A DNA stretch of 64,000 nucleotides, taken from NCBI RefSeq assembly GCF_023055435.1, contig NW_025963902.1, positions 2,603,815 through 2,667,814 on the forward strand, in the 5' to 3' direction. Positions 6,541 to 34,408 of the stretch are shown here, piece by piece. The translations under genes and the position numbers were made by a program. Positions within the stretch are counted from its first letter, which is position 1. Every line of letters begins with the position of its first letter. The notes under the pieces were generated by a model. The model was not told the DNA's origin. It saw nothing but the letters and a program-made list of their open reading frames with translations, and did no database searches. The DNA comes from Haliotis rufescens (Eukaryota).

Positions 6541-7974
6541 AATTAATAACCATGAGCTGTTGTTACCTAATCCTCATTTTCAGCAGCTGCTGTTGTATAA
6601 GTCATACCTGGAATCATATTACTCTATGTTGATAATGAATACATATCAGACAGCTGGGAAATACAAGAATATGATGGCAGTCATAGAGATTATTACACGA
6701 GTTCGAGTATGTGTGTCATACTAATTTTATGAAACGAGGGTATAAATTCTTGTATTTCCCACACAATGCCATCTGGATGACAAGAACAATACAATGGTGT
6801 GTGTGAAATGATATTTGCACCAGCGAACATAGGATTTTTATTAACCATGTGGGTAATAAATAGAAGATATTATGTGTCTTGTGAAATATCTTGTTTCTCT
6901 CATCTCATGACAGGGGAGGGGCAGTGGGGTAGCCCAGTGGTTGAAGCGTTCACTCGTCATGCCGAAGACCTAGGTTCAATTACTCATATGGGTACAATGT
7001 GTGAAGCCCGTTTCTGCGGTCCCTAGCCATGATATTGCTGGAATTTTGCTTAAAAGATCACTCATGACGGGAGAGAAGAAATATTTTCAATTGTTGCGAC
7101 GCCGCTTTTAACAGAAGTCAGTATTATCACAATGTGTCAGCTAAATGTTGGAGGAAAGCCTGAAGTGATGAAGGTCTCAGATGTTTACCAGCTTGGTGAA
7201 ACTAATGACCATGGGTATGAGGCTGACAAACCTAGAAACATAAATGGGGCAAACCGGGATTCAAACCCATAGCCATAGGTTTCTGACGTGCCCAAGGGAT
7301 GCAACTCTGCCCAGCAAATTGTGCATCCTTAGACGACCTGGCCACCCATGCCCCCTGTGGGTAATGACAATGTTTGTCTGTTTGATGTTAAATGCCGCTG
7401 TCAGCATTCATGCTGCTGTGTGAAGGATGCCAGACACAAGCATACCTCGATCTCCATCCATCTCATTAAAACCGGATCTTTTATGATACTGCTTTGCACG
7501 AAGATTTGATGACGTCTACACAGGAGCTCAGGCATTAGGTGAACTTTTGTGATGATGACCAGGGTCTTAGACAGTTAAAGCAAGCAAAGCATTCAAAAGC
7601 ATATCTGTTTCCTGAATGTCAAAACTGAATCTGAGAGTTCAGAGTGCAAAAAAATAAAACCACGCTGTTATATTGTTGTGGCTATTTTACAGTGTTTTCT
7701 AGCACCATCTCCACCAGTAAGGGCGTATAATCAAGAGGTCTGTCGTGTTCTGAGGCAGTTTCTCTTTTGCTATTACATATAATTATAAAAAAAAAATCCT
7801 TATCGAGGTGGTAAAGAAATGAAGCTGAATCGTTATTAGAAGCTGACATCTGATTGGCTCTAGCTGGAACCTGCGCATTCTTCAGCAAGATCGGGCGGTT
7901 AGTCCACTTAGGGTTCACATGATGCAACCTTCTGTGAAGGTGTCCCCACATCTTCATGCACAGGCTATCATCAA

Positions 7975-9705
7975 AAACTGTTTACTATGTTTATCTAGTC
8001 TGTCATACAGACCCTGAAACAAATATATCTAATACAGCCAATGCAAGTCTATAATGTTTGGCAAGTCTAGATTACTGCAGTGTCTGAAAATGAAAAAAAT
8101 CTCTGGGCTCCTTTTTATTATATTTCATAACTATAATTTAACAAAAGTTTTTTTCTGTGAAATATGTTCATTTCAGAGACTAGATGTTAGTCTAATGTAA
8201 CAATAATGTTTCTCATCAAAAACCTTTTTTCTTATCGTATTTCGATATAAGAATGAAATTGGATGATAAATAAAATCTCTCTCGTGTCTTTTGATATCAA
8301 ATATATCAACACTCATTAATAAAAGTAGAAAAACACGATATCAAATATATCAACACTCGTTAATAAAAGTGGAAAAACTTTTCAACTTTTATCAACTCGA
8401 GTTGATAGATCTATATTTGATATCAAAAGATACTTGGGTGAGATCCTCGATAAAATAGTACTTAAAAGATCCGATTTGAATGAAATTGTCTGTAACACAG
8501 CTACTTTGAGGGCGATTTTGTGATTTTACTAATCATGCACTTAACTTTTTAGAAGATACATCACATCAGTATTTATCATAGCCAGCTAGTGACCTGACTG
8601 ACCTCTATCACCTCTAGCCGAGAGTCTAATGGGGGCCGAGGCTACAGTCTGGACCATCCCCACTCCAGTAATGAGCCAGTACTGGGCTACTCAATGATCT
8701 GATAGAACTCAGGGACTCCAGTAATGAGCCAGTACTGGGCTACTCAATGATCTGATAGAACTCAGGGACTCCAGTAATGAGCCAGTACTGGGCTACTCAA
8801 TGATCTTTAGAACTCAGGGACTTCAGTAATAAGCCAGTACTGGGCCACTCAATGATCTGGTAGAACTCAGGGACTTCAGTGATGAGCCAGTACTAGGCTA
8901 CTCAATGATCTTTAGAACTCAGGGACTTCAGTAATAAGCCAGTACTGGGCCACTCAATGATCTTGTAGAACTCAGGGACTTCAGTAATAAGCCAGTACTG
9001 GGCCACTCAATGATCTGGTAGAACTCAAAACTGTTTACTATGTTTATCTAGTCTGTCATACAGACCCTGAAACAAATATATCTAATACAGCCAATGCAAG
9101 TCTATAATGTTTGGCAAGTCTAGATTACTGCAGTGTCTGAAAATGAAAAAAATCTCTGGGCTCCTTTTTATTATATTTCAAAACTATAATTTAACAAAAG
9201 TTTTTTTCTGTGAAATATGTTCATTTCAGAGACTAGATGTTAGTCTAATGTAACAATAATGTTTCTCATCAAAAACCTTTTTTCTTATCGTATTTCGATA
9301 TAAGAATGAAATTGGATGATAAATAAAATCTCTCTCGTGTCTTTTGATATCAAATATATCAACACTCATTAATAAAAGTAGAAAAACACGATATCAAATA
9401 TATCAACACTCGTTAATAAAAGTGGAAAAACTTTTCAACTTTTATCATCTCGAGTTGATAGATCTATATTTGATATCAAAAGACACTTGGGTGAGATCCT
9501 CGATAAAATAGTACTTAAAAGATCCGATTTGAATGAAATTGTCTGTAACACAGCTACTTTGAGGGCGATTTTGTGATTTTAGTAATCATGCACTTAACTT
9601 TTTAGAAGATACATCACATCAGTATTTATCATAGCCAGCTAGTGACCTGACTGACCTCTATCACCTCTAGCCGAGAGTCTGATGGGGGCCTAGGCTACAG
9701 TCTGG
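7975..9705. repeat. tandem duplication: 665-bp unit at 7975-8640 and 9036-9705 (near-identical) separated by the 60-bp minisatellite; unit contains internal 45-bp duplication and a caactcgagttg palindrome
   Basis: aaaactgtttactatgtttatctagtctgtcatacagaccctg... recurs at 9036; gatatcaaatatatcaacactcgttaataaaagt motif. Confidence 0.85.
8640..9030. repeat. 60-bp minisatellite x~6.5 (ccagtaatgagccagtactgggctactcaatgatctgatagaactcagggact)
   Basis: period 60 verified (8681/8741); lies between two copies of a 665-bp direct repeat. Confidence 0.85.
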
Positions 9706-10409
9706 ACCATCCCCCACATCTCCACTGATCTCCATCGACCGCGGTCCTCGGGGACATCCAACTCCCAGTTGATGAATAGGAAAATACGGTACTCACCTTT
9801 GTAAGTCTCTCGGGTCTGCAAACTCCTTCCTAGGAAAGATCAGCAACAGTCAGTGTGATGTCAACTCGAGACACAGTCTTCCCGATCCGAGTACCCCGAT
9901 GGCGAGTCGATTCTACGTAAACAACGGTAAAGTCGTTAGACTATTAGGCACCTACACATGGACAGCTGTTGTGTGCTGTTATTTGACAATTGCCGTCGAT
10001 GACACCGCCTAAAAACCTGTCTTAATAAATATGCCAATGACAACGTGCACTGTAAAACTCGATACTTAACCAAACTGCAGTCTGAAGTTTGCAAACTCAC
10101 TCGCGTACGGCCTTGACATAGGCCCTTGAATCTTAACCCGGAAGTAAATAAGCGCGAATAAATCTAGACTTGCTTCGCGTCCTAAATAGGCATCCTCCTT
10201 GACAGTCTGCTCTATTTCTGCATGTGCTTACTGTTGTTCTGTGTATTGTAACTGATACAAGTGTTGAAGCTGAATGGTGGTCATTTTGGTCACATTCTAA
10301 ACGTGTTCTTTTCTCTCAACAATTTAATTAATCCCATATCATCGGATCTCAGTACATTTGGCTAACATCCATTTTTATTAATGTGATTTTATCTTTTTCT
10401 CAAAGAAGT

Positions 10410-11340
10410 GAGTGGCCCAGAGTGAGTTTGGTTAACCCCCTGGATGCCAGAGGGACATATATGTCCCTCCTCTACAGCCCTCACTTTGAAGTCGAATAAA
10501 ATTCAAAATACGTCACCCACACAAATACACTTTACAGTTTTGAATAAGGTGGGAAATTTCCTGTTCTGTAATATCACCCACTGGCATTTTAGGCCAAGCA
10601 AAAGTACTGAACATGACCTCTGAAAATTAGGTACATCGTAAATGTCGCCATTTTTTACACATTACTAAATCACCACTCACGGCGTTATTTACAGCATGTT
10701 TTGAAATCTAAATTTCGGATATTTACTCGGAGAAATGAATTTCAAAAATAGCATATTAGTGATCACGGGTATCTGTCTTTTATGAAATCACCAATGATCA
10801 TTCCAAAACGTCTCCGATAACCCTAGAATCGTTTAGAATGTTTTGGAAAAAACGAAAACACGAACGCCGAAGCGAACTTTCCGCCATATTGGATAGTGTT
10901 TACAAAATCACGTTTCATGTACACCGGTTATGAGACGCCTGTAACATCACGTATATTTCAAACTTATCTGCGATACCTACATCCTTGAATTCCTCATACA
11001 TTTTAGAATCAAATGACCATGCAGTGGTCTTTGTCACCAATACAAAGTGGCTAGATGAAATCAAGCAAAATAAGTTAGGTGTGAAAACGAACGCTGTGCT
11101 CGAAAAACTGCACATGGTTGAAATGTAAACAAAGCCAAATTCAGATTTTACACAGTGTAGCATATTCTCCTATGTTGAGCTATCCATTCGTCTATTCGTT
11201 CAAGATATTGGCTCAACATTTTCAGAATATGCATGGGAAGAGAATCGTAGGAAGAATAAGGGAATTTCAAATAGGTACATTGCAAGTTGTTTTTCTGACG
11301 CACATGAAGTGAAGGTTGTGCGAGAATATCTCGCCGCTTT
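10410..11340 (+). repeat. ~930-bp interspersed repeat, copy 1 (ends ggttaaccccctggatgccagagggacatatatgtccctc ... gtgaaggttgtgcgagaatatctcgccgc)
   Basis: inverted copy at 19990-20870 (identical 60-82 aa ORFs MLHCVKSEF... on opposite strands at 10915-11163 and 20132-20314); mini-copy at 17690-17790. Confidence 0.8.
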
Positions 11341-13549
11341 TAACAGTATTACAGTTATATCGCGGCGTGTCAGCTTAATGTGGGAGGAAAGCCCGAAGTG
11401 ATGCAGGTCTCAGACATTTACCACTTCAGTGAAACCCACGAGCACGGGTATGGTGCTGACAAACCTAGAAACATAATCGGGGCGAACCGGGAATCAAGCC
11501 CACAATCATAGGTTTCTGGCACGCACAAGGGACGAAACTCTGCACAGCGAATCGCGGCGCCTTAGACGACTGGGCCACCCTTCCCCCCTGTGGCCCAGAG
11601 TACAACACATAAGACAGATGCACATATATATTATGTGTGGACAACATAATTAACAATTACCTGAAATTTAAAGTATTCACCAAAGTAAAGTATATCTAAC
11701 GAAGATATGTCCTTTTTATATTTTTTTCTCTACTCTCTCTATAAACAGACATATAAACAACAATTGATATCCATATTAAAAAAATATTTAAGTTTGAATG
11801 TTCACAAGGTAATTGATCATGAGGAATAATGCCGTCACCGTCACGTTGTTCCTGAATCTATAAACTGCACGACATCATCAACAAATGACAATATCTTGAC
11901 ATCAATATATTCATTGACCAAAAACGTCCACGAATGTAATTCTTTTGTAAAATCTTTCTTAATAAAAATTATGAAAGAAATATTCTTTCGTAACATGATG
12001 TTTATAGGTTCTATTGTACAGGGAGTCTGTAAAAGATGCAGAGTTGCGTCCCTTAGCTGTGCCAGCTCTGTCATCTTCAAGTTTGTCATCCTCCTCAATA
12101 AACGCTAGACTTGATTTAAGGTTAAATGTAATATTTCACAAAATGAGGTATATGGGTTTAGTTCAATTTAGCTTAGTTCGTTGGTTGGTTTGTTGTTTTA
12201 CGCCGCACTCAGCAATATTCCAGCTATATGACGGCGGACTGTAAATAATCAAGTCTGGACCAGACAATCCAGTGATTAATATCATGAGCATCGATCCACG
12301 CCGTCGGGGTACGATTACACGCAATCAACCAAGTTACCGAGCTCGACTACCCGATCCATTTAGTAGCCTCTTACAACTAGCATAGGCTGCTGTGCACCAA
12401 CTAAGCCCGATTCGACGAGTAACATGTCAATTTCGACATTAGCGGTCGCCGATACACAGCTACAAACCCCTCATTTAGTAACGTCTGGCCCTGTCTCTGC
12501 AACGTTTTCAAAAAAATATTCTGGCCCAGACTCGATTATTGTTGTCAAATAGATGAATTATTGATGAGTGTGCCGTTAAATAACAAAGAAAGATCGATAA
12601 ATGCATGACCAAGTGTCAAACAAACACAAATGTACGAAACAGAATGACGTCATTAAGTTACCCTCCAATAATATTATATTTTACGTACGCTTCTGTTCCT
12701 TTAGGTAGGCCAAACGTATTTTTAACAATCACCATTCCATCTTTCTCTCAGGTGTACTATCATATTCAAACTGAGAATGTAACCTCGTGCCCAGTATCAC
12801 ACACACAGTGTAATGCTTCAATTGTGATAATTTAGTTGGGAAATGTTTCGAGGTTCTGACAGCCTCGAGTATCCAGTATTATATCTCCAATCTGTTATGA
12901 TACCTACATGAAAAACTGGATAATCGAATATGAAGTTCTGAGTGCATGCAGTGGTGTTTGAATCCCCATTCCAATGTATCAGTGAGTGAGTGAGTTGTGC
13001 TTAACGCCGCTTTTAACAGTATTCCAGGCCAGTTATATCACGGCGTGTCAGCTTAATGTGGGGGGAAAGCCCGAAGTGATGCAGGTCTTAGACGTTTACC
13101 ACTTCGGTGAAACCCACGACGACGGGTATGGTGCTGACAAACCTAGAAACATAATCGGGGCGAACCGGGATTCAAACCCACAATCATAGGTTTCTGGCGT
13201 GCCCATCCCATGATCTCCTCATTAGAGACAACAAAACCTGCTGGTATACATTTCACTTAAATTAAAACAATTTGCATATATACGCATATGTTTAAAATAC
13301 AGACAAATACTACGGAAACAAATCCGTACATTTAGATTGAGTAAAATTTAAAATAATAAAATGCTCTTGATATTAAACGTCGATTGGGTACCCCAAATAT
13401 TCGTGTAATACTTTAAGTGACGTATGAGAAATCTCGATCTGCGGTTATCCTATTGTCCTATTTCGCTAGGTTTCAAACATAACCGTTTTTATCACCCACG
13501 TGGTGAAGATACGAGTGGTAAGATACTAATTCCGTACGTCACACGTGCG

Positions 13550-14660
13550 TCCACTCTCCTACCCAGAGTTCCTTGCGGCCGGCAGCCAGCCAGCATAGTA
13601 CCTCTGCCACAGGCCAGCGCCCACACTCCGTCGCAGTGGTCACTCAGCATAACACCACTGCCACAGGCTAATTTGCATATCACGTGACCGGACTTTTCTC
13701 TTGTTTGTAAACAAACGCGCTTTTTCAAAAATCAGTATAGAACGGACTAATGCAAGTATTTGGTATATGCTTTACATATTGTTTTGCATAATTTTATAGA
13801 TATGCTACTACAACTGCGACAGTGAGTTGCATGACAATATATATTTATACATCAAAGTGACCGTATCGCTAGCTCTCCGTTGGGCTTCGATGACAGCACG
13901 TGGAGCCGTACAACCAATGTAAACAAAGGATAACTACGCAAAAACAAGTAGATTTTCACGTTTTAGGATACTTTCTTAATGAACCGTAACCATTCTTTGA
14001 CATTTGTTTACCACAATGTAAAAGCTTGACAAAAATGAAACGGATGAACAGCATATGCAATATCTTGAATGGACTGTGAAAGATGTGACGAATCGTCACA
14101 TGGCGCTGGCCTGTGGCAGAGGTACTATGCTAGCTAGCTGCCGGCCGCATGGAACTGGGTAGGAGAGTGGCCAGCGCCATGTGACGATTCGTCACATCTT
14201 TCAAAGTCCATTCAAGATATTGCATATGCTTTTCATCTGTTTCATGTTTGACAAGTTTACACATTTTCGTAAACAAATGTCAAAGAACGGTTACGGTTCT
14301 TTAAGAAAGTATTCTAAAACGTGAACATCTACTTGTTTCTGCGTATTTATCCTTTGTTTACATTGGTTGTACGGCTCCACGTGCTGTCATCGAAGCCCAA
14401 CGGAGAGCTAGCGATACGGTCACTTTGATGTATAAATATATTTTATCATGCAACTCACTGTCGCAGCTGTAGTAGCATATTTATATAATTATGCAAAACA
14501 ATATGTAAAGCGCTCCCAAATACTTGCATTAGTCCGTTCTATACTGATTTTTGAAAAAGCGCGTTTGTTTACAAACAAGAGAAAAGTCCGGTCACGTGAT
14601 ATGTTAATTAGCCTGTGGCAGTGGTGTTATGCTGAGTCACCACTGCGACGGAGTGTGACG
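13550..14660. repeat. ~1.1-kb complex inverted repeat: arm L 13611-14110 and arm R 14162-14660 (~95% identical as reverse complements); spacer 14111-14161 is itself an inverted copy of left flank 13550-13610
   Basis: reverse-complementing 13741-14110 reproduces 14162-14530 with few mismatches; tgtgacgaatcgtcaca palindromes at arm tips. Confidence 0.85.
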
Positions 14661-16924
14661 TGCGTCGTACAAGGTTGACCTTGTATTATTCGTTTTGATT
14701 GGATAACCGTGACCTCTGTCACACCGGAACTACTTTTTTATTCATAAAAAAAATCACGAGACGTCATTCACTTGTACAACAACAAGGCAGAAATGAAGGA
14801 ATCTCACACACTTTATTAAACCAAACAATTTCGTCACACGCATCAAATTCACTTTGCATTCTATATTAGTAATGCATAGAGCTACCTTATACTATCGAGC
14901 TATACCCATATGCAATGTACGACTACCGATAGATCGAGGGTCCCTATGAGAATGACACACCCGACCACTTTCGCGACTTTCAGATTTAACGTAAAAGGTT
15001 GAGCGTCGTGAAATGAAGCCACTTTACACTATCTGGACACATATGTAGACTTACGTTGGATGTCCCATGCCATCAGTGTTCCCATTCTAAGCTTATTTTG
15101 TGACATTGCTTCCGGAGGTGTTTGTTCATGAATGAGGATACACTACTGCACGGCCAGATCACTCAAAGTGAACAGATCCGATACAACTCATTCGAAAAAA
15201 GTGTGCCTTGCTTAATTTTTTTGGGTCCAAACATCCCAAATGTGAACATAATATTCCCTATTGACCTCTCCCGTAAAACGCTGCGAGTAGATCACGGTTG
15301 TCTTTTCTTATTCCGAGTGTGACCTTGGCCTTCGTTCGAAGCTGTCACTGACGTGTAAGCAGACTTGAGTTTGTTGATTTTCACGTCTTCAGTACAGGGT
15401 CATACAGTTAACATAAACGTATTCGGCGAGCACTCGGATTTCACTCTTCCCAAATGGTACAGACAGGATATTAATTCCGCTGATAGATCAAGGAAACCGA
15501 ACTATTTTGATTGCACAGCCGGGAACCCGTCGATGCGAAAGAACGAGATTCAAATCGCGGCGCTAATTGGCTTTTTAAAGTATTCTTACAGTTGTCATGC
15601 GTACTACAACAATACGCTTGACTTACCTTAAGTTGAATCAATACTTTAAATAAGATCTTGAGCGTTGATGCTGTCATGTTTGCACACACAACATCAGGAA
15701 CAAGTTGTTAATGCGTATGTATAGAAATGTCAACAATGCCTATATTTGGGCATATATCAATATCCATGCGCAACCAGATTTGCATCCGATTTCAGCTTGG
15801 TCTGTTCACGAACGAAATGTGTTATGTATTTACACTTAAATACATATTTTAGGTGCATGGGTAATAAATATAATACCACACTCATTCTCGTTAGATACCT
15901 TTTTTACGAAACTCGTGAACTTTCTATGGTGTCTAACCTCGCTTTCGCTCTGTCAGATACCATATATAGTCCACTCGTTTCTTAAAAATGATATCTAATG
16001 AAAATGAGTGTAGTATTCTTTATTTATTACCCACGAGGGCAAACATATCAGGGTTAAAAAGACCATATGTGCCCTAGGGTCATATCACGTCACGAGACAA
16101 CAGTGTATTATTTCGGTCATCCGGACGGCATTGTTGACGTCATTCGAATAATAATTAAATTTTCGTTGTGTTCATTGAAATTCCTGTATTCTGATTAGCT
16201 GAATTGGTCACGTGTTATTGCATTCATTTCCCACTGAATGTAAAAAAGTAAGCCACGCCAACCGAGGCGCACTACTTTTATTACTGCGGAATGTCGGGGA
16301 AATCCCAATATTACAATCGAGGGAATTCCCTTTCTGCTCACGTGTATCGTCATGCACAGGACATTTAGCGACTTTCATGCATATTCATTGTCCAAACTAC
16401 CCTTTGAAACCGAAGGCCGAGAATGAATGAAACAGCAAACGTGCAGGCTCGCTCGCCTGTTTTTTTTCTGCTCGCCTCGGTTCAACTTTCATGTCTTCGG
16501 GTTTCATTTCTAACTAGCATTTTTCCAACTGTGTTTTACCGTAATCAGGGAAGTAATGTTTGAATCTGGCGGTAACTGACCATGTAATTTGAAACAGCCG
16601 CCTTCTCCCGGACATATTTCTTCCGGTTCGTTACAGTTTGACATTTGCAGTTCTTTTCGCCTCTTGTCTTAATTGACAGGTCCAATGAACATTGTTTTGA
16701 TCCTGCTCTCCGTTGATTGGCTACTGACTGTACAGGCGTGTCAAGTTATGTGCATAAATTAAACGATCACCTGATTCATGTCACGCCACAGTATGTATTC
16801 CTACACCTGGAATGTTTATCAATCTCGTCATTTTTGTCTGTTTTGATATATACAACTGTTTTTGGTTAAACATGTTTTAAGTTGTCGAATTTAATTATAA
16901 GCATTGACTGTGTATTTTTTCGGT

Positions 16925-17038
16925 TCATTGAGGTATGAATCGAAAAACCAATGTGCAAACTTTTGTAAGAATCCGCTACGCGGATTCATACAGTTTGCAC
17001 ATCGGTTTTTCGATTCATACCCCATTCTACCATGAATT
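16925..17038. repeat. near-perfect ~100-bp hairpin / foldback (ggtatgaatcgaaaaaccaatgtgcaaacttttgtaagaatccgctacgcggattcatacagtttgcacatcggtttttcgattcatacc)
   Basis: outer arms ~33 bp with one mismatch; inner gaatccgc-tacg-cggattc palindrome; lies in the 16152-17395 segment that separates two CRE-rich repeat modules. Confidence 0.7.
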
Positions 17039-17404
17039 TGGAATTTACTCGATTCTGATTGGTCAATCAGAGGATTTTAAATCACAATAAACCCCCTATG
17101 ATTGAAACAGCTGGTTTGACGGCCGCATCACCGCGGAAGCTAATATTCATAGAATAGTACTATTTTCAGTCATTGTCGGTAGGCATATTTAAATAATTAT
17201 ATCTAAAATTACAGGTTACAAAATGCACAGATGCGGGTACTACGCTAAATCTAACATTTGAAACCTCACGCTGCGCGTTCGGTTCCAAATTCAATTTAGC
17301 GGGGTTGAATCTACAGGTAATCTAGCTCTACATTGAAAACACAGTATGTTTATCTCCTAAATAAACCGCAAAAATACACAGTCAATCCTTAATTATTGTG
17401 ACGT

Positions 17405-17470
17405 GTGGTCGGAATGACGTCACACTAGAACGACGTCATAGCTGAAGATTGTTGACGTCATTCGACAAAT
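17405..17470 (+). promoter_or_regulatory. repeat module carrying three CRE-like sites (TGACGTCA at 17415-17422 and 17453-17460, GACGTCAT at 17432-17439); identical module at 21385-21450
   Basis: ggtcggaatgacgtcacactag(c)aacgacgtcatagctgaagattgttgacgtcattcgacaa repeated 4 kb apart in same orientation; regulatory function not demonstrated. Confidence 0.3.
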
Positions 17471-17689
17471 TGACGTTCCGCTGCTGTTACGACTTGCTGT
17501 ACTAAACACTAACATTGGTCTCTGTATGTAGACATCTTCTTCGGTAAAAAATAGAACATTATATTTGTGTTCATTTCATACTATGTTTACGACACTCGCT
17601 CGCTCTCCCCCGAGAAATACCGGGATTTAGACACTCGTATCGTAAACATAGTATAGTAAACATGAACACTCATATTATATCCACTATTT

Positions 17690-17790
17690 AACCCTCTGGA
17701 TGCCGAGTTTTTTTTCTGACGCACATTTTCCTTAGATCGGAAAAGTGAAGGTTGTGCGAGAATTGCGCTCACGCGGCACTGGATCTACCT
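17690..17790 (+). mobile_element. ~100-bp internally deleted derivative of the 930-bp repeat (ttaaccctctggatgccgag-ttttttctgacgcacat..gtgaaggttgtgcgagaattgcgctcacgcggc)
   Basis: carries only the two termini of the long copies joined together, a pattern typical of non-autonomous derivatives. Confidence 0.5.
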
Positions 17791-19989
17791 CTGGATATAA
17801 AATTACGCAGGGGTGGAGAATATTAAATTTCCTATTTAATGGTGTAGAGTTAACTGCAAATATTGAACCGGTTTAATAAAAATACACTTCTAAGTGTTGC
17901 CCGAGAATTTTTTCTGCCTTGAAAAACAGTAAATTTCTCCGCTTTTTATCGAACACCGATATAAGTACACTGTGCGACGATTTTTTTTATTTACTAGCTT
18001 TACGGAATCTGTGAGCGAACAAAATACTGCCTAATATCTGAACGACATAACTATATACCAAATGGAGTTATATGCGTATGTATAACGACAAACATGCAAT
18101 GCCAAAAATAGCTTGCTGTAAATGACGAAAACTGATTTTTCTCTATGACGTCAAAAGGCGACAGAGAGGTTACACACGTACAAAGAAAAGGGGGCATAAC
18201 TCCGCTAAGCTTAGCACTAGTTTATTGTAACTCAGGTCACTTGATGAGAATTAGCCGTGGGTAAGGATAACATATTTTCGTGGTGTTTTGTTCACGAGGA
18301 ACCAAACTATTCCAACACAAATATCGATAAAGAAACTGTATACGTTTAGTTGTAAAACAGACCCATAAGAAATGATGAAATCGTGCTTCATTAAAAAGAG
18401 GTAATAGAGGAATGGATGGCCCTATCTAACCTATAACTTAGTCCTTAGATTCCAACATTCTCCTGAATGTGTAAGTGTAATTTGACTAATGTTGCATCAT
18501 TATTAATGGAGCACTAGCCTTATCATCAAATGTTATGAAATACCCTAAAAATAACACCATTCCTTTTGACGTCATGGCTGGTTTTATGTCTTTGATAACG
18601 TCGGAAAAAGACGACACTGGTATTTTGATTAATATATATCTCCTCTAATTTTCGTTCATGGTATGGTAGATCTCGATGTGTGGAACGGAATTTGATGCTT
18701 TTTCGACACAACATAAAATGACTGCTTTCACCAATTAAATAATGTCTTGAATATGTAAACAATTAGCTAGTTTATCGTGTGTCTTAATTGGACAAGACAC
18801 GCACCTGTTTGGCATCAATTTACGTAATGAAATACCCAAAAGAATGTTTCAAAACAACCAATATTCAATATTGGACATATATTTGTTCATGATTATATTA
18901 TTTTTTCTTACACAATAAAAGATGCGAAGAAAGCTGGGTTAAGAAATATCAGGATAATCGTATACGTTTGGTACCTGGCATGGGTTATATTTTTATACAT
19001 TTTACAATTCCTGGAGAAATAAAGTAAACTGTTTTCTATCCTGTGATCACAATATTGAAAAAGAATGAAACCATTGATTATGTAATGCAAAACGAGAGGA
19101 ATAATTCGTAAATTGTTTGTGACTAACGCGCACCTGACGAATCGTTAGATATCACTGTTCTCTGTATCCAACGACATAAAAGACAAATCCAAGACCAAGA
19201 CATTTCAGAAATGTGTGCATATATTTTACCGAAAAATATTATCCATTTTGTTAAAGTAATATATTCAGTTTTAGTTATACAATAAAATGAAACGGCTATT
19301 TGTGGACATTGGTTATATGAACTTATAATATTGACTTATTACACATCCAAAGAAATACGTACATGCTGCAGTTACATTTACACTTCATCTTGTAACACTT
19401 GTCCAAAGGAAAGAAATATCGTATTCGACACTAAAACCTATCAATTGTTATGTAAACAATGTTCAAACAAACAGGAGATTATCAAAGGTTCGTTCATACA
19501 TGTTGTGGCCTATATGTACGTATGATTTCATTTTGAACATTGACAAATATCCAAAGTGAAATGATTTGTGTGAAAAATTGTATAAAAGACATGCAAAATA
19601 TACACCATAACTGAAACTGTAAATAGCATGATACAATGATCGTGTGTACTCTCATTCAAGGACCTTCACCTCTACGAAATTACCAAATATGTACAACAAT
19701 GTTGACGTATGACATCACTACCTGTGACCCACTTTTACCAAATGGCGTATTCACTGTCAACAGTACGCAGGATTGTACGAGGGAACTTTCGTTGATTCAG
19801 GGATCGTAGAAACATAAATGTGACATGTAAGTAATCAGAAACATTCTGAAAATCTATGTACTGTTATTTGTTGTCATAATTTTCATTGAAACAATCGGAA
19901 ATAGTCAGAAATTCCGATAAATACCGTTGTCGTTGTGCGTGATTTTGCGTCAGTCATGGCGTCAACCAGAACGGTAATTTTGACAACAC

Positions 19990-20870
19990 CTGTTGAAAAT
20001 ATCAAATCATTGCAATGTATCTATTTGAAGTTCCCTAATTCTTCCTACGATTCTCTTCCCATGCATATTCTGAAAATGTTGAGCCAATATCTTGAACGAA
20101 TAGACGAATGGGTAGCTCAAAATAGGAGAAAATGCTACACTGTGTAAAATCTGAATTTTGCTTTGTTTACATTTCAACCATGTGCAGTTTTTCGAGCACA
20201 GCGTTCGTTTTCACTCCCAACTTATTTTGCTTGATTTCATCTAGCCACTTTGTATTGGTGACAAAGATCACTGGTCATTTGATTCTAAAATGTATGAGGA
20301 ATTCAAGGATGTAGGTATCGCAGATAAGTTTGAAATATACGTGATGTTACAGGCGTCTCATAACCGGTGTACCTGAAACGTGATTTTGTAAACACTATCC
20401 AATATGGCGGAAAGTTCACTTCGGCGTTCGTGTTTTCGTTTTTTCCAAAACATTCTAAACGATTCTAGGGTTATCGGAGACGTTTTGGAATGATCATTGG
20501 TGATTTCATAAAAGACAGATACCCGTGATCACTAATATGCTATTTTTGAAATTCATTTCTCCGAATAAATACCCGAAATTTAGATTTCAAAACATGCTGT
20601 AAATAACGCCGTGAGTGGTGATTTAGTAATGTGTAAAAAATGGCGACATTTACGATGTACCTAATTTTCAGAGGTTATGTTCAGTACTTTTGCTTGGCCT
20701 AAAATGCCAGTGGATGATATCACAGAACAGGGAATATACCACCTTATTTAAAACTGTAAAGTGTAGTTGTGTGGGTGATGTATTTTGAATTTTATTTGAC
20801 TTCAAAGTGAGGGGTGTAGAGGAGGGACATATATGTCCCTCTGGCATCCAGGGGGTTAAGTAAAGTTCGG
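19990..20870 (-). repeat. ~880-bp interspersed repeat, copy 2 (inverted relative to 10410-11340)
   Basis: reverse complement alignment with copy 1 over almost full length. Confidence 0.8.
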
Positions 20871-21683
20871 TGTTGGTGATACATGGCCTACCAGTATATG
20901 ATTCACAAATTATGATAACTGTGTATCGGGGTCACAGAAAGTTCCTCTAATGGGGAATGGAAATGACGCGACATGTCATCTGTAAATGCTATCTGTGAGT
21001 TTGTATATTGTAGTTTCACTAACACGCAGGGTCGGTCGTCTCCATAACACTGTACAAATATGTGTTCGGTATTTCGGCATACCACACGGACCAACACCAC
21101 ACGGACCAGTGTCAATAATGGTGGCCTACATGAATATCTCCACCTGATGATTGACAAGGTGTCAATGAATCAACGAACACAACGCCATATCGCATTTTTC
21201 TCAACAATTGAAGTACTGTGACGCCATATGGCTTCAATTGACTTCAAATTCAAACGTGCGAATGTGAGTAATATACTAGTTTATTACCCACAGCACTAGT
21301 GCAAATATCACTTCACGCACACCGGTGTATTGTTTACGTCATCAGGACGGCATTGTTGAAGTACTCGAATTTCCTTGTGACGTAAGGTCGGAATGACGTC
21401 ACACTAGCAACGACGTCATAGCTGAAGATTGTTGACGTCATTCGACAATTGTGGTTTTCAAAGACGGCGGTCGTGATCGGTGCATTTTTCTAAAGCAAAG
21501 CTGAACAGGATTAAGAAATAATGGGTGATAAAGAAATTATTATTATTATTATTGGGTTTCCAACCAAAAAGTCACAGACACGACATGTCAACCATTATTA
21601 ATTTTACTTTAAACAACCAAACCAACATGTTATCATGGTAGATTATCTTTTTACATTTACAACAGTGGGGCTGCCTCCCCCAG

Positions 21684-25655: not shown

Positions 25656-25914
25656 GTAAGTGTGTTTTCGTAATTTTACAATGTAACCATCTGGTATTGT
25701 AACACTTGATTCCAACAGTGAGTGAGTGAATTTTGTTCAACGGCACTACAAATGGACACTATTCCTGATATATCACGTCGAGGATGTACAGGGATGTATT
25801 AACCTTGGACATAGTTGTGATCCTGTAACCTACAGCGTTTGGTTATGCTAATTAGATATATGCTAAGCGCACCAGAACACGGTAACTAACAGTATAAGCT
25901 TGTCTTCATGTAAT

Positions 25915-26290
25915 TTGTACCGCCTCCGTGGTCTAGTGGTAGAGCGTCCGCCCGGAGAGCGGAAGGTCCGGGGTTCGATCCCCGACCGCGTCATACCAAA
26001 AGATGTTAAAAGATGGTACTTGCTGTTACCCTGTCTGGCGCTCGGCATTAAGGGGCTAAAACAAGGACTGGTCGGCTCGGAGTCAGTATACTGTGTCTGA
26101 GTGGGGTATTCATGTTAAACTGCGGCATGGTATCTCAGTGAGCTAGCACTATAAATCGGCATCAGTCCGGACTAGTACAAGCAGCCACACAAACACACAC
26201 ACGTACTTCCACGTCGCTATATAAGTGCAATAATCTTGGACGCGACGTTAAACCCCATTTCACCTCACCTCATGTAATTTGTCGAAATGA
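25915..26290 (+). mobile_element. ~375-bp tRNA-headed SINE, family D (head gcctccgtggtctagtggtagagcgtccgcccggagagcggaaggtccggggttcgatcccc; tail ..gttaaaccccatttcacctcacctc)
   Basis: other copies: 55795-56115(-), 57680-57900(- partial), 70-165(- fragment); related tail at 5985-6100. Confidence 0.7.
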
Positions 26291-26738: not shown

Positions 26739-26878
26739 ATGTCTGCACCACGAAGATCTGTGGAGGAGTCCTTGTACAGGATCCCTCCCTACTACTATAT
26801 CCACTGCTTGGACCAGAACACCAACGTCACACGGCTGGAGATTGGGCCAAAGACGTACATCAGACAGGACAATGAGAG
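26739..26878 (+). CDS. MVP: major vault protein, coding exon 1 (ATG at 26739; [46 protein letters not shown], ends in phase 2; donor GT at 26879)
   Basis: Translation matches the vertebrate MVP N-terminus (IPPYxYIHxLDQN..[12 protein letters not shown]); GTGAGA donor; codon R split ag|g with next exon. Confidence 0.85.
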
Positions 26879-27469
26879 GTGAGATTAGGTACTAGTTTTG
26901 GAGTATATAAACAGAAAAGAGATTAGACTTTGGCTTCAAGCATATTACATGTACGATGGAAGACATCGACAGGAGACAGGGGTTGAGAAAGTTGAAGCAG
27001 GAAATGAATTTTCTGAGATACTGGGAAAAATATAAAAGAATAAAAATATTTTCAGTGTTGATTTATGGTATATTTTCTGAAAAAGAACGCTTTAAAAAAA
27101 AGCTGTCTCAAAATGTATGACACCAAAGAATAACAGAACTACAGAAACATGAAAGAATCGGGTGTTCTTCAACTTCTTTAGAGTTCCATGGTAACTAAGA
27201 AACAGATATTGGCAAAAGAGCATATAATAGAAAACTGTTTAGTAACTTATTTTATTTTTTGTGAAATCAAAGGAAAGCTGAATTATAAAAAATAATAAAG
27301 TTGGTACATCTTCAGTTGGTGATGGTTCCTATTTCAAGATAGAAAATGCCTGGAAAATCAAAGAGGAGGTGACTTATGTGAGAAGTTAACACCTTCATAT
27401 TTTGCAAAGTGAAAATATAAGAGTTAAAATAAGTATTTGGCCACACTTTACTCTAAATGCACATTCCAG

Positions 27470-27665
27470 GGTTGTCCTCGGCCCCGAGAAGATGTTGGTG
27501 GTGCCCCCTCGCCACTACTGCGTCGTTGAGAACCCCGTCGTCCGCAACAAGGACGACCACATCGTGTGCAATGAGAGTGGTCAGGCCAAGCTGTTCCACG
27601 CTGATCAGGAGATCCGCTTGGCTCAAGACCCCTTTCCTCTGTACCCTGGGGAGGTGCTCAAACAG
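27470..27665 (+). CDS. MVP: major vault protein, coding exon 2 (..VVLGPEKMLVVPPRHYCVVENPVVRNKDDHIVCNESGQAKLFHADQEIRLAQDPFPLYPGEVLKQ)
   Basis: AG acceptor at 27468-69, GTGGGA donor at 27666; PPRHYC..LRHADxEIRLAQDPFPLYPGEVL conserved MVP repeat-domain motif. Confidence 0.88.
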
Positions 27666-28099
27666 GTGGGAATAAATACACATCTCAAACACCAGAACAC
27701 CCAGAGTCAGAGACCAGGGTTGCGTTCACTTTCAAGACTTATTGTCTCCCCCTAATTTTTTATAATATGGAAGAATGTTCTGTCAAAAGTTGATATTCCA
27801 ACTTCAGACTGGTCTAAACGGAGGATAATTATATGTTATATTATGAAAAAGAAAAGAATTGTTTTACTCTTGAAGAAAGCTAAGTAATTGAACCATTTAT
27901 TTTTTTGTTAGATTATGAAGTATACTTCTCGACTTTTGATAGGAATGTTTGTATCCTTTCGTCATATTCAAAGATGATTCTCATATGTCAATTGTTTATC
28001 TAAATAGAAAGAGATCTGAATATCCCTACCAAGAGTTGTGTCGTTTACATATGTTTCATGGAATGTACTATTTATATGATAATAACATTTGTATTGCAG

Positions 28100-28223
28100 C
28101 CTGTCACTCCGCTGAAAGTAGTACCTGCCAACTCAGCGCTTCGTCTCCGGTCAATCCTGGACTTTGAGGATGAGACTGGGGAGAAGAGGACTGCAGGGGA
28201 CGAGTGGTTATTTGAGGGACCAG
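28100..28223 (+). CDS. MVP: major vault protein, coding exon 3 ([41 protein letters not shown]-)
   Basis: tattgcag acceptor, GTATGT donor; [23 protein letters not shown] motif identical to human MVP; 124 nt, ends phase 1. Confidence 0.88.
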
Positions 28224-30268
28224 GTATGTACAGTCGTTGTGGGCTGCTTTCTTCAGGAAGTCAGATTACCTGATGCTCTTCGAACCTTCTCAGATAATGG
28301 GGAAAGACAACTGACCTCTTCCCAATTGGGAGGATTACTGATCATGTTGTCAATCACTGGATTGTCTGGTCCAGACTCAATTATTTTCAGACCGCAGCAT
28401 ATAGCTTGAATATTGCCGAGTGCAGTGTTAAACAACAAACAAACAACTGACCTCTGATCGAGTCTTAAAGAAGTGATATTAAAAACAATGATACTTTTGG
28501 GACATGAAATCAAATTTGTTTGTTATTTAAGGCAGCTGTGTATATGGAGGTAGTCTGTAGATAATCGAGTCTGGACCAAACAATCCAGTGATTAACATCA
28601 TGAGCATCGATCTACACAATTGGGATACAAGAGGTTGTAATCAATCAAGTCACTGAGTCTGACTACCTGATCCAGTTGGTCACCTTGTACGACCAGCATA
28701 GGTTTGCTGGGAAACTATTTTCTTATTGGAATCCTATGTCGTTACGAAATTGCTAACTTGAGCCCTTACAAAGAGCTAGGGACATAATTTGCCTGGAATA
28801 CCTGTTTTGTTTGGAGACAGGGTTAATACTGATACCAAGTTTGGAATGCTGATGAAGCAATTATGAATTCCATGTATGTGTGATTGCTCAGTATGGTGGT
28901 CTTATTTATGAAGATTCCATACTTTAACATAGACTTGCAATCCATGGGTTCAGGCCTTGGCCAAAACTTGTTCTTGGATTTCTGTAGTCAACATGACAAG
29001 ATCCAGGCAGCTGAATAAAATTGCTTGAGAAATTCAGGGTTGATTTAGGTAAAGTTTAAGAAAATATTACAACTTTGAAAAAATAAATTGCATTACATCA
29101 ATCACTTACACTGTTTTTATTTACCATATTTAGAATAGAAGAAAGAGTAATATACTTTGAACAGACTAATAGCATATGTACTAATATGGCCATGTGTATG
29201 GCAGCAGAGTTGTGTCTAAAGTAGACATTGAATCAGTTTCTTAAAATAGCTTTTGATGAATGCTGCTCTGATTGGTGAAAGGGGAGGTAATAAGGCAGCT
29301 AGCCAAAATGTCCTGTTGGCGGTTGATCATCCAAAGCATGATGAAACTCTTGGAAATCAGTACAGAACTGACTAAGGTTTATTTTTGTACAGTAACCTAA
29401 ATTATTGCATCTCTCAACAGTGTAAACAGCCTATTAGGTATATGATACATATTTAACAACACAAAGTGTTGTATATTACTGGTATATCTCAATTAGCCCT
29501 AATAAAGAACAAAATATATTTAATAATGTACAACATATTGATAAAAATGATGTTGGGGACAATCCATAAACTATTACACATTTTGGTTAATCTGTTTTTA
29601 ATATGATTTTTATTTGTTACATTGTATAACAATGGTAACATTGTTAATTCTGCCATATGTTATGGAGTTTTATTCAGTAATTAGATTATTGTAAACCTCT
29701 TCAGGGAAAATAACCTTGAATTTCTTCAGGAAAAATAGCCTTGAACAAGTTGATTGCTTTTGCATGGAAATACTTCTTTGTTCTATTGAATTTGGTCAAA
29801 ATTAATAACATGTAATCAATTTTGTTTGTTGCATGATAAGGAACAATTTAATTATTTAATATTTATTGATATTATTTGATGTGACATTATGTTAAGCTCG
29901 GGAAAATCATTGAAGGAGTTAATGTATTAGATCTTGATCAGAGATGAGTGATATACGTGATATATATCAAATATATGAAACTCAAGTTTCCTTCTTACAC
30001 AAATCTTTCACGAGATGTTTTCATCTAGTCACATATGCTACTCAAAAGAAATTAAGGATCACCCGATTCTTTCATAATGGTAAAGTTAATCTGTCATGAC
30101 ATGAGAGATTAACTATAGTAATATGAAAGAATCAGGTGATCCTTACCTTCTTTTGAGTAGTATATTATTTAAATTTTTCATCAAGGTTGATAGTCAAAGT
30201 TACTATTTATCAAATATAGTTTGTGGAAACTAAATTGTAAATCTCATTTCCCCTATGTAACTTTGCAG

Positions 30269-30495
30269 GCACATACATCCCACGTAAGGAGGTAGTAGTA
30301 GAGGAGACGATCAGGGCCACCGTCATCAAGCCAAATCAAGCTATCCGGCTGCGGGCTCGCAAAGAGTGCCTGGACCGTGACGGCAGTGCCCGGGTCACAG
30401 GGGAGGAATGGCTGGTCAAGAAGACTGGAGCTTACCTGCCTGGAGCATACGAGGAAGTTGTCGATATTGTCAATGCTTATGTTCTCACCGAAAAG
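30269..30495 (+). CDS. MVP: major vault protein, coding exon 4 ([76 protein letters not shown])
   Basis: ctttgcag acceptor, GTCAGT donor; [45 protein letters not shown] matches MVP. Confidence 0.9.
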
Positions 30496-31235
30496 GTCAG
30501 TATTCTGCATTGTTTTGTTGATATGTGCTACTTAAAAGAAGTTGAAGAACACCCATTTTTCTTTCATGTGACAATAGTCTGTCATGGCTGGTGGGTGTTG
30601 GAACACACAGCACTGTGAGTGTTCTTGAACTTCTTTTGAGTAGTATATATGAATCCAAATAACACTTTATCCTAATGTATTTCCCTGTGGGGATTACGGG
30701 TTACAATATGGTGCCAGCTACCTGTTCTGGTCGAAAGAGGCAGTCATATGGATCGGGTGGTCAGACTCGGTGACTTAGTCGCGTGTCATCAAAGTCCGAT
30801 GGCGTGTATCGTTGTTCACAATATCCATGGATTGTCGTGACCAGACTTGATTATTTACACCAAACATGAGGCTGAAATATGCTCAGTTTGCAGTTATTGA
30901 GTGAATTTTCTTCAATGAAAAGTCCTGGGGACAATAACAAATACAAGTTGAGTTATTTGTAGAGAGTTATCGGTAGAGAGGAGTGTCAGTGTTTGGCTAT
31001 TTCAGACAAGATTGAACTTACATCATCAGAAATGCTTTGTCATATGAAAGAAATCTGAGTTGATGAGGCCTACTGTGTATAATTTGTGTGTTCAATGGGT
31101 TGAACTAAAGGATTTTTCCTTTTTGGTGAAAGATACTGATTTTGCCATAATGTTAAAATGATTAAAATTTGCATGTCTAAGTGAATGATTGCTGTATTAT
31201 TGAACATTTCGGTGATTACTCAACAATGTCTGGGT

Positions 31236-31400
31236 GGTCGCTTAGCCTAGTGGTTAAAGTGTTCGCTCGTCATGCCGAAGACCTGGGTTCGATTCCCGAC
31301 ATGGGTAAATTGTGTGAAGCCCATTTCTGGTGTCCCCCGCCGTGATATTGCTGGAATAAATACCATACTCGCTCACTCACTCATTCACTCACTTAACAAT
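31236..31400 (+). mobile_element. tRNA-derived SINE, family A (head gcctagtggttaaagtgttcgctcgtcatgccgaagacctgggttcgattccc; tail ..ccgccgtgatattgctggaata + (cact)n) in MVP intron 4
   Basis: other family-A copies: 6912-7055(+), 38755-38880(+), 61443-61610(+), 2933-3095(-), 33565-33740(-), 52340-52497(-). Confidence 0.75.
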
Positions 31401-31457
31401 GTCTAGACTTCAAGTGGGAAACATTTTCACTATATATCATATTTACTTCTTTTGCAG

Positions 31458-31583
31458 AAAGCACTTCACATGCGTTCACTGAAGACTTTCAAGGATGACT
31501 TCAGCATTGTGAGAAAGAATGGAGAGGAATGGTTGATCACAATGACGGACACCGAGACCCACATCCCGGGGGTGTACGAGGAG
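31458..31583 (+). CDS. MVP: major vault protein, coding exon 5 (KALHMRSLKTFKDDFSIVRKNGEEWLITMTDTETHIPGVYEE)
   Basis: ttttgcag acceptor, GTGAGT donor; 126 nt phase 0; aligns to human [42 protein letters not shown]. Confidence 0.88.
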
Positions 31584-31774
31584 GTGAGTACAAGCGTACC
31601 CAAACACACAGTACACTCAATTTTTCTCACTAAACATTTACATTCCAATAAAAAAAGTGATAAATAGGTTTTAAAAAAACTGGTTCATTCTGTACAGAAA
31701 ATTTCAAAGGATTCAAAATATATTGGTTGGTTGGTATTTAGAGCTACAATTATTTGTAGTATGTTCTTATGGGT

Positions 31775-32052
31775 CTGGGGGACACGGATGGCCCAGTCGT
31801 CTAAGGCGCCACGATTCGCTGTGCAGAGTTGCGTCCCTTGAGCACGCCAGAAACCTATGATCTTGGGTTTGAATCCTGGTTCGCCCCGATTATGTTTCTA
31901 GGTTTGTCAGCACCATACCCGTGCTCATGGGTTTAACCGAACTGGTAAACAAACATCTAAGACCTGCATCACTTCGGGCTTTCCTCCCACATTAAACTGA
32001 CACGCCGTGATATAACTGGAATACAGTTAAAAGTGGCACTCACTCACTCACA
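31775..32052 (+). mobile_element. tRNA-derived SINE, family B (head gggggacacggatggcccagtcgtctaaggcgcc...; body ..aacctatgatcttgggtttgaatcctggttcgccccgattatgtttctaggtttgtcagcaccatacccgtgctc..; tail (cact)n) in MVP intron 5
   Basis: other family-B copies (minus orientation): 7088-7350, 11325-11592, 12975-13200, 44895-45190, 45690-45972, 50815-51090, 52610-52912. Confidence 0.75.
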
Positions 32053-32245
32053 GTCTATCCTATGCCTGTATCTGTAGGACCGCCTCTGTGGAGACATCAG
32101 CTCAGAGATCAGTAAAACGTTCTGAGATGTTTTATTGCAAATAAAATTGATTCATGAAACTGTTTATCCTATTGTTTATCACTGTTTTATGTACTAAATT
32201 AATTAACAATGTGTACATGCTATTATCAATATGTTTGTGTTTCAG

Positions 32246-32356
32246 GTTGTGGGAGTAGTGAACATCACCACTCTAACTAACCGTCAGTACTGTGTGATTC
32301 TCGACCCCGCCGACGAGAGTGGCAGACCACAGCTGGGGAGGAAGAAGCTTATCAAG
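32246..32356 (+). CDS. MVP: major vault protein, coding exon 6 ([37 protein letters not shown])
   Basis: tgtttcag acceptor, GTAATA donor; YCVILDP..G..QLG.K...KGEKSFF continuity with next exon as in human MVP. Confidence 0.85.
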
Positions 32357-32374
32357 GTAATACACGTTCCGAAA

Positions 32375-33050
32375 CGTAACTCACTCCGTACCATCACACA
32401 TCATCACATCACTCACACCACAATCACACATCACCGTAACATCACTCACAGCACCATCACACGTCACCGTAACATCACTCACACCACCATCACACGTCAC
32501 CGTAACATCACTCACACCTACCATCACACATCATCACAACATCGCTCACACCACCATCACACATGACCGTAACATCACTCACACCACCATCACACATGAC
32601 CGTAACATCACTCACACCACCATCACACATCACCGTAACATCACTCACACCACCATCACACATCACTGTAACATCACTCACACAACCATCACACATCACC
32701 GTAACATCACTCACACCACCATCACACATCACCGTAACATCACTCACACCACCATCACACATGACCGTAACATCACTCACACCACCATCACACATCACCG
32801 TAACATCACTCACACCACCATCACACATCACCGTAACATCACTCACACAACCATCACACATCACCGTAACATCACTCACACCACCATCACACATCACCGT
32901 AACATCACTCACACCACCATCACACATGACCGTAACATCACTCACACCCATCATCACACATCACCATAACATCATGCACACCAACCATCACACAACACCA
33001 TAACATCGCTCACACCAACCATCACACGTAATCAAGGTAACACGTTCCTT
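32375..33050. repeat. 33-bp minisatellite (~20 copies; accgtaacatcactcacaccaccatcacacatc) in MVP intron 6, starting ~20 bp after the exon 6 donor
   Basis: direct reading; both strands give long artefactual ORFs (11-aa periodic peptides). Confidence 0.9.
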
Positions 33051-33226
33051 ATCATCACACACAACCAAGCTGTGCCTCATCAGTCTGGTAAAGGCATTAT
33101 GATAATTTAAAAAAAAAATTCATTTCAAACTTTAATGCACGTTTTTAATTTTCTTCATTATACAACTGACAATTGGACTGTAATTTATATAATCAGCTTG
33201 TTCAAAATTTGTTTGTTTTCCTTCAG

Positions 33227-33352
33227 GGAGAGAAGTCCTTCTTCTTGTTGCCCGGTGAGCGGCTTGAGAAGGGAATTCAGAATGTGTACATCCTGGGAGA
33301 AGACGAGGGTCTCATCCTCAGGGCTAATGAATGCTTCAAGGACAAGGATGGA
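33227..33352 (+). CDS. MVP: major vault protein, coding exon 7 ([42 protein letters not shown])
   Basis: ccttcag acceptor, GTGAGT donor; [34 protein letters not shown] in human. Confidence 0.88.
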
Positions 33353-34258
33353 GTGAGTAAAACTATTATCTACACAACTGATAACATAGGAGAACCATGT
33401 TTCCTGCATGGAACTCGCAACACAAAGTTTTATTTCCTGCATCACATTGGTAACATATTGAAAATAATGGTAACAGATTACCATGGTAACCTATTTTCCT
33501 GTGAGGATGCATTTTAATTTCCAAATTGTCTTCATACTTTATTTGATTTTATCGGCTTGATCTGGGAGTGAGTGAGTGAGTGAATATGGTTTTACGCCGC
33601 TTTTAGCAATATTCCAGCAATATCACGGCGGGGGACACCAGAAATGGGCTTCACACATTGTACCCATGTCGGGAATCGAACCCGGGTCTTCGGCGTGACG
33701 AGCGAACGCTTTAACCACTAGGCTACCCGACCGCCCCTTGATCTGGGAAAAACATTCTGAAGTCTCACTGTAGTATTTAATGTACAGCAGTATGAGACAT
33801 TTGACTTTTAAAGACTATCGCTAGTCGCAGGACTAGTGCAAACATGCTTCACTTGTCACTGGTTCAGATTTATCGCCCATAAATGTTACTAGTTATTCAG
33901 GACTGACATTTTATTAAGTTGTCCTTGGCACTATTTCAAGGGCAAAAGTACTCCAACTCTGTCATCTCGGCAATTCATTTAGCCCATGTTATCACCAGAT
34001 GCAAATTAGCACTGAACACCAGTCAAACCCGTCAAGATGATAGTCCATGATAAATTTTGAATCCGTGAAGAAAAAGCCATCCAAATTTCAACAAGGTCGA
34101 GAGTTGTTTCCCTTTAGCAGCAAGCAGACAAGTATAACTTTCTAATGTGGATTCAGCAACCTTTTGTATGCTCTTGCTAATAATATTCATTACAATATTT
34201 TCGTCAGGTGCACATGGTCCAAGATGGGAAAACAGATTAATGTTATTGTTTTGTGTAG

Positions 34259-34408
34259 GGAGACGAGCGTAACCCTGGAGATCGATGGATGATCCGAGGA
34301 CCCACCGAGTATGTTCCCCCCGTGGAGGTGGAGGTGGTGATGAAACGTCAGGCGATCCCACTGGACGAGAATGAGGGGATATATGTCCGAGACATCAAGA
34401 ATGGCAAG
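34259..34408 (+). CDS. MVP: major vault protein, coding exon 8 ([50 protein letters not shown])
   Basis: gtgtag acceptor, GTATAT donor; [44 protein letters not shown] in human. Confidence 0.88.

Follow-up and report, generated by a model that had tools for sequence, protein, structure and literature searches.

Nested multimers account for more than 10% of 6,600 rice MITEs, with frequent self-insertion in Castaway and Gaijin, and nesting is also known for maize Tourist and in mosquito (PMC5172404). In these arrangements, a short non-coding element with terminal inverted repeats (TIRs) lies inside a copy of its own family, each copy has its own target-site duplication (TSD), and the insertions are independent events. 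The plant cases are mostly Tourist or Stowaway elements, the TSDs of which are 3 and 2 bp long, respectively. In the maize double Ds, one Ds is inserted in inverted orientation within an identical Ds, and the composite breaks chromosomes by aberrant transposition (PMC3260210, PMC7584900).

The 64-kb stretch of Haliotis rufescens DNA analyzed here (the window) contains a 1.1-kb structure that very probably consists of two antiparallel copies of one small non-autonomous TIR transposon (MITE-like), one nested in the other. Nested self-insertion of this kind is a common and already understood arrangement and not a new kind of element. The features of the nested MITEs named above are shared by the abalone pair; unlike them, it has a gastropod mollusc as host and a TSD of 9 bp. 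The antiparallel, element-within-element architecture is also that of double Ds, but Ds is a hAT element with an 8-bp TSD (PMC3260210), whereas the TSD here is 9 bp, the termini are different, and the copies have diverged by 5.5%. Because both copies keep their ends, a transposase would see like ends in an unusual relative orientation, as in double Ds, and a similar aberrant transposition may take place at the nested pair.

The Foldback (FB) elements of Drosophila, which have a TSD of 9 bp, resemble the nested pair in their long hairpin-forming structure and in the 9-bp TSD around the whole. However, the arms of an FB element consist of short repeats in tandem array and belong to a single element, whereas the arms here are unique sequence belonging to two elements. 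Maize Mu killer is a natural inverted duplication of part of MuDR, and its hairpin RNA silences MuDR. The nested pair is like Mu killer in containing inverted transposon sequence, the transcription of which would yield a long dsRNA, and unlike it in being intergenic, with no promoter identified at its locus.

The initial annotation described two inverted arms at 13611-14110 and 14162-14660, separated by a spacer that mirrors the sequence to the left of the left arm. The arms are real, although these limits were off by ~3-11 nt. By BLAST, positions 13622-14111 and 14169-14657 are 94.3% complementary over 490 nt with one 1-nt indel; the repeat search splits the same arms into 13769-14111/14169-14511 (343 nt, 94%) and 13622-13763/14516-14657 (142 nt, 98%). 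The mirrored spacer was also borne out. The 57 nt between the arms are the reverse complement of part of the 70 bp that adjoin the left arm on its left, the matching segments being 14102-14170 (69 nt) and 13551/2-13621 (55 nt at 95% plus 16 nt at 100% in the repeat search; 70 nt at 92.9% by BLAST). This spacer copy and the left arm have 10 nt in common at the end of the arm. If the left 70 bp are called A and the left arm B, the arrangement is therefore interleaved, A-B-A'-B', and not X-loop-X'. Such an order is exactly the outcome of the antiparallel insertion of an element into a copy of its own family, and the 10 nt shared by B and A' where they meet are the signature of the inner target-site duplication.

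The boundaries of the two copies are defined by two pairs of perfect 9-bp direct repeats, each with a chance probability of ~4^-9 = 4e-6. The inner pair, GCCAGCGCC at 13613-13621 and 14170-14178, encloses the inner copy (U), a complete unit of 548 bp on the + strand (13622-14169, CACACTCC...GGAGAGTG), which was delimited by these repeats, by BLAST, and by a structural scan. The outer pair, ACGTGCGTC at 13543-13551 and 14658-14666, encloses the outer copy (V), which lies on the - strand and is split in two. Its first 70 bp, at 13552-13621, carry the A end with the terminus CACTCTCC and hold the 9-bp target that was later hit by the inner copy. The other 479 bp, at 14179-14657, end in ...GGAGTGTG, the B end, as placed by the TSD boundaries and BLAST. 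When the inner copy and one 9-mer are excised, 13552-13621 and 14179-14657 are joined into a 549-bp outer unit of opposite orientation. In reverse complement, this unit can be aligned to the inner copy from the first to the last base (548 vs 549 bp) at 94.5% identity, and the differences comprise 14 transitions, 16 transversions, and 3 gap columns.

The inner target 9-mer GCCAGCGCC occurs a single time at the homologous place in the inner copy (14102-14111 region), which makes it a piece of the element itself that the insertion duplicated. The bases immediately beyond the outer 9-mers are unlike, and the TSD is thus exactly 9 bp long. A structural scan with the pattern CACWCTCC...GGAGWGTG and flanking direct repeats matching in at least 7 of 9 positions was run over the window and three other Haliotis loci (~159 kb). 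It returned only the inner interval and the 1106-bp composite, each with 9 of 9 positions identical. Both 9-mers share xCxxGCGxC and are GC-rich within DNA of ~40% GC, but with n = 2 this is not significant as a target preference. The locus thus records two successive integrations, each of which duplicated exactly 9 bp of target.

The first copy integrated at ACGTGCGTC, an intergenic site ~12 kb upstream of the gene for major vault protein (MVP), and duplicated 9 bp. The second copy then integrated in the opposite orientation at GCCAGCGCC, 61-69 bp from one end of the first, and again 9 bp were duplicated. In both steps, a transposase supplied in trans is presumed to have bound the termini and cut the target with a 9-bp stagger, and gap repair would have produced the duplications, according to the established mechanism of DDE cut-and-paste transposases. 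The antiparallel orientation of the copies brings 490 bp of one opposite 490 bp of the other, with a loop of 57 nt in between that is formed by the short end of the inner copy. This explains both the foldback and the spacer that mirrors the left flank.

The insertion was also seen from its empty site. The MVP locus of Haliotis cracherodii (L001, GCA_022045235.1) aligns to window positions 11332-49315 at ~90-96%, and the alignment breaks exactly at 13551. In L001, positions 2243-2263 read cgtcacACGTGTGTCgtacaaggttga, where window position 13551 is joined directly to 14667; the stretch ...ttccgtacgtcacACGTGTGTCgtacaaggttga... corresponds to 13538-13551 joined to 14667-14678. The flanks of this empty site are 91-94% identical between H. 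cracherodii and the window. A single copy of the outer 9-mer is present in the ortholog as ACGTGTGTC, with one substitution, and the element is absent. Empty sites of this kind are the classical proof that a transposon has inserted, here with a 9-bp TSD. The site also shows that the outer insertion, and hence the inner one, postdates the split from H. cracherodii and took place in this Haliotis lineage, most likely H. rufescens. Precise excision in H. cracherodii, in place of an ancestral empty state, is unlikely, since cut-and-paste excision usually leaves footprints. The loci of Haliotis rubra and Haliotis asinina, which are 72-75% identical upstream, are too diverged for the orthologous site to be located.

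The window is eukaryotic in character, with few long open reading frames, many minisatellites, and ~39% GC. Exons of MVP were found at 26757-39208 on the + strand, so that the nested pair lies ~12 kb upstream of the gene. The MVP protein stitched together from the window is 99% identical to that of H. cracherodii and identical to that of H. rufescens away from the exon-junction stitching. Exons of an RNF34/rififylin-like gene are located on the - strand at 56.5 and 59.7-60.1 kb, and the same neighbor is present in H. rubra. In the H. cracherodii annotation, MVP is the only gene called in the 33.8-kb orthologous stretch, with none over the site, and the insertion site is therefore intergenic.

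Three other differences from H. cracherodii are situated upstream of MVP. A 316-bp segment at 14679-14994, 12 bp to the right of the nested pair, is absent from the ortholog. It is flanked by an 8-bp direct repeat, AAGGTTGA (14671-14678 and 14995-15002), that is present once in H. cracherodii, and it lacks TIRs and was found nowhere else in the window or the loci. This segment is either an insertion with an 8-bp TSD or the result of a microhomology-mediated deletion in H. cracherodii. At 16157-20884, 4.7 kb without long open reading frames stand opposite ~0.8 kb of unrelated sequence in H. cracherodii (L001 3790-4573), and this is a further lineage-specific insertion/deletion block. A tRNA-derived SINE of 352 bp is located at 25919-26270, ~470 bp upstream of the MVP start codon, and is also absent from H. 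cracherodii. Its tRNA-like head reads ...GTGGTCTAGTGGTAGAGCGTCCGCC...GGTTCGATCCCC, and it has a 12-bp TSD, CATGTAATTTGT, at 25907-25918 and 26271-26282. Diverged copies of this SINE (73-77%) were found on the - strand at 55827-56108 and 57697-57892, and one was found in the H. asinina locus (L003).

Folding calculations agree with the long, near-perfect hairpin expected from the initial annotation. The RNA minimum free energy of the composite is -843.5 kcal/mol, compared with -283 +/- 9.6 kcal/mol for 30 dinucleotide-preserving shuffles (z = -58), and as single-stranded DNA the composite folds at -559 kcal/mol into one near-continuous hairpin. The inverted repeat is far beyond chance. In contrast, a single 548-bp copy folds weakly (-73 kcal/mol as single-stranded DNA, z = -3.0), with its two ends paired together. 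Because a lone copy forms no foldback and the composite does, the hairpin stems from the nesting, and the foldback property is a feature of the nested pair and not of the single element. A short palindrome that had been noticed earlier is present as the 19-bp ATGTGACGAATCGTCACAT at 14083-14101, with the outer-copy counterpart ATGTGACGATTCGTCACAT at 14179-14197 (direct repeat D4 of the repeat search). It has the form ATGTGACGA(A/T)TCGTCACAT and occupies element positions 462-480, directly internal to the landing site of the inner copy. An Rfam search aligned the hairpin tip (14083-14198) with the plant miRNA family MIR6145 at 45.5 bits (E ~1e-8), compared with a gathering score of 53.4. This match was dismissed as structure-driven, being a generic match to a perfect stem with a loop of 55 nt instead of the 14 in the model.

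Two open reading frames had been interpreted as mirrored artefacts of the symmetry. Both exist and neither matches a family, but instead of being reflected about the axis of symmetry, the two share an overlap on opposite strands in the GC-rich left end. True mirror pairs are found elsewhere, for example 13956-14099(-)/14181-14324(+) and 13852-13959(-)/14321-14428(+).

The same initial annotation classified the structure as a complex foldback-type element, FB- or Crypton-like, or as a recent inverted duplication. Its relation to transposons stands, and the FB, Crypton, and inverted duplication identities were rejected. A single FB-type transposon with terminal inverted repeats of ~490 bp and a short loop, inserted once, would provide the long inverted arms, the short loop, and a 9-bp TSD around the whole, which is the size found for Drosophila FB. 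Such an element is very improbable here, because the internal perfect 9-bp repeats mark off a whole unit whose termini are those of the outer unit and thus reveal two elements. The loop is moreover homologous to sequence beyond the left arm, contrary to what would be expected of a single foldback element, and the outermost ends of the structure are not the long arms, the left end being the 70-bp A segment. Tandem sub-repeats are also absent from the arms (TRF score of at least 30, 13400-14800). Cryptons encode a tyrosine recombinase and lack TIRs and TSDs, whereas the unit has both and contains no tyrosine-recombinase open reading frame or other coding signal. Fold-back priming or chimeric long reads can also yield high-identity inverted arms with a short spacer, so that a local inverted duplication (by template switching or hairpin-primed repair, without transposition) or a palindromic assembly artefact would explain part of the geometry. 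However, an inverted duplication yields a simple X-loop-X', free of TSDs and set in unique flanks that continue the ancestral sequence, and not the interleaved A-B-A'-B' with an independent perfect 9-bp TSD for each unit. In the sister species, moreover, the whole unit is missing, with the break exactly at the TSD. Assembly palindromes are ~100% identical, in contrast to the 30 substitutions and 3 gap columns observed here. We consider an origin by duplication or artefact to be hardly credible.

An alternative that retains the nesting is a local self-insertion of the double-Ds type, in which the inner copy is the outer element's own copy, for example from the sister chromatid, that hopped by dozens of base pairs. 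The inner hop would then have followed soon after the first insertion, and the 5.5% difference between the copies would have arisen afterwards. The architecture is that of double Ds, which is frequent since Ac transposase favors local transposition (PMC7584900). In addition, the copy divergence of 5.5% lies just below the flank divergence of ~6.2% between the species (window 11332-13551 vs L001, 93.8% identity), so divergence in situ since shortly after the species split is numerically possible. Local self-insertion nevertheless needs both insertions to have occurred almost immediately after that split, whereas independent source copies explain the 5.5% without any constraint on timing. On balance, the local hop appears rather unlikely; the divergence fits two different source copies and is just compatible with such a hop.

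The single unit is 548 bp (inner) or 549 bp (outer) long, within the size of MITEs (less than ~800 bp), and has 41% GC. Its termini are CACWCTCC...GGAGWGTG, and the terminal 8 bp are inverted repeats with 7 of 8 positions matching (CACACTCC and CACTCTCC). A subterminal motif of 24 nt, CAGCATARYACCWCTGCCACAGGC, is located at 13645-13668 on the + strand (direct repeats D1 and D2, inverted repeats I4 and I5), and the repeat search places further occurrences at 13591-13614 (+), 14109-14131 (-), and 14611-14634 (-). The motif is set back by 24-47 nt from the B end of each copy and by 39-62 nt from its A end. The motifs at the two ends are 87-88% identical (I4 and I5), and it is through them that the ends pair in the single-copy fold. 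The terminal 8 bp and the 24-nt subterminal motif together form an imperfect TIR, and the motif may serve as a binding site for the transposase. When the longest stop-free translations were joined into a chimera, designed also to catch open reading frames called on other copies in Logan assemblies, a search of 5.8 billion proteins gave no homolog of any element reading frame. No Pfam match, tRNA, SINE origin, or above-threshold Rfam family was found for the element. It is a MITE-like non-autonomous TIR transposon without coding capacity.

The window and the fetched Haliotis loci yielded neither an autonomous partner nor a transposase, and TSD length is for this reason the sole guide to the superfamily. 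Both termini begin with CAC, yet CACTA/CMC and Transib were rejected, since their TSDs are 2-4 bp and 5 bp, respectively (Wicker 2007, Repbase). Merlin elements have a TSD of 8-9 bp, which fits, and a conserved terminal 5'-GG (PMC8101967), which does not, as both termini of the element start with 5'-CAC. The hAT elements (Ac/Ds) have an 8-bp TSD (PMC3260210), and they are excluded here, as the unlike outer bases and the empty site confirm that the TSD is exactly 9 bp. Mutator-like elements (MULEs) have TSDs of 8-11 bp and TIRs of 14-500 bp (PMC6446971), and the 9 bp found at both insertions lie inside this range. In automated surveys, MULEs were detected in all mollusc genomes analyzed, and Merlin was nearly confined to cephalopods (PMC10294476). 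From the length of the TSD, a Mutator-like transposase is tentatively suggested as the best fit, with about as much to be said against it as for it. Against it stands the TIR, whose short and imperfect make-up (an 8-bp end with one mismatch and a displaced subterminal motif) departs from the long TIRs typical of classic MULEs.

A sensitive BLAST search found two copies of the unit and no further ones in the 64-kb window, and ~95 kb of DNA from H. cracherodii, H. rubra, and H. asinina contained none. Exact-pattern scans gave 0 matches for the subterminal motif in viral and metagenome collections, and 0 matches in metagenome and GTDB genome collections for a 25-nt core in which the two copies are 100% identical; as these collections are not mollusc DNA, the scans are uninformative on copy number. 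We found nothing specific on Haliotis MITEs in the literature, and only the Haliotis family as such, with its element of 548 bp and its 9-bp TSD, may be new.

With two insertions after the split of H. rufescens and H. cracherodii, the locus documents recent activity, in California abalones, of a DNA-transposon family that has a TSD of 9 bp. Beyond annotation the finding has little import, except as a worked example of how nested self-insertion mimics a foldback element or an inverted duplication. When genome scans report an A-B-A'-B' order with a spacer that mirrors the flank, internal TSDs should be checked before a foldback is called. The locus can also be used as a presence/absence marker among Haliotis species or populations.

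Cruciform extrusion, replication instability, and dsRNA or siRNA production, all of which had been proposed earlier, are physically plausible for the nested pair in view of the predicted fold energies, and a hairpin might also form on the lagging strand. Long, closely spaced inverted repeats are known fragile sites, and the pair is thus a candidate for local instability upstream of MVP. We infer that the hairpin or cruciform potential, any dsRNA, and any aberrant transposition of the double-Ds kind would be side effects of the arrangement and not evolved functions. Improbable roles for the pair are those of a starting point for a new foldback element with long TIRs and of a hairpin silencer in the manner of Mu killer. 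If it did seed such an element, the like B ends at 13622 and 14657 would bound a 1,036-bp unit with 490-bp TIRs that could be mobilized by the family transposase. As a silencer, a read-through transcript would feed siRNA/piRNA silencing of its own family in abalone.

Several tandem repeats are present elsewhere in the window. A tandem duplication at 7974-9714 has a period of ~1,053 bp (7974-8447 vs 9027-9500, 99.4%; 8200-8661 vs 9253-9714, 98.9%) and surrounds a satellite block of 6.9 units of 53 bp at 8662-9027. Within it, two 44-bp x 2 repeats (8293-8378 and 9346-9431) are related to a 36-bp minisatellite at 47102-47436. A 95-bp minisatellite of 15.3 units at 58364-59807 (97% identity) either adjoins or overlaps the RNF34/rififylin-like exon reading frame at 59742-60092(-) in its 3' part, and the GC skew in the 58-60 kb bin is -0.39. 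In an MVP intron, an Rfam tRNA match at 33661-33732 (-) scored 30.1 bits against a threshold of 29 and was not called by ARAGORN; it is probably a SINE head or a tRNA pseudogene. An MVP intron also holds a 33-bp minisatellite of 19.3 units (32390-33027), which is C-rich on the + strand with a GC skew of -0.31 and produces long artefactual open reading frames on both strands.
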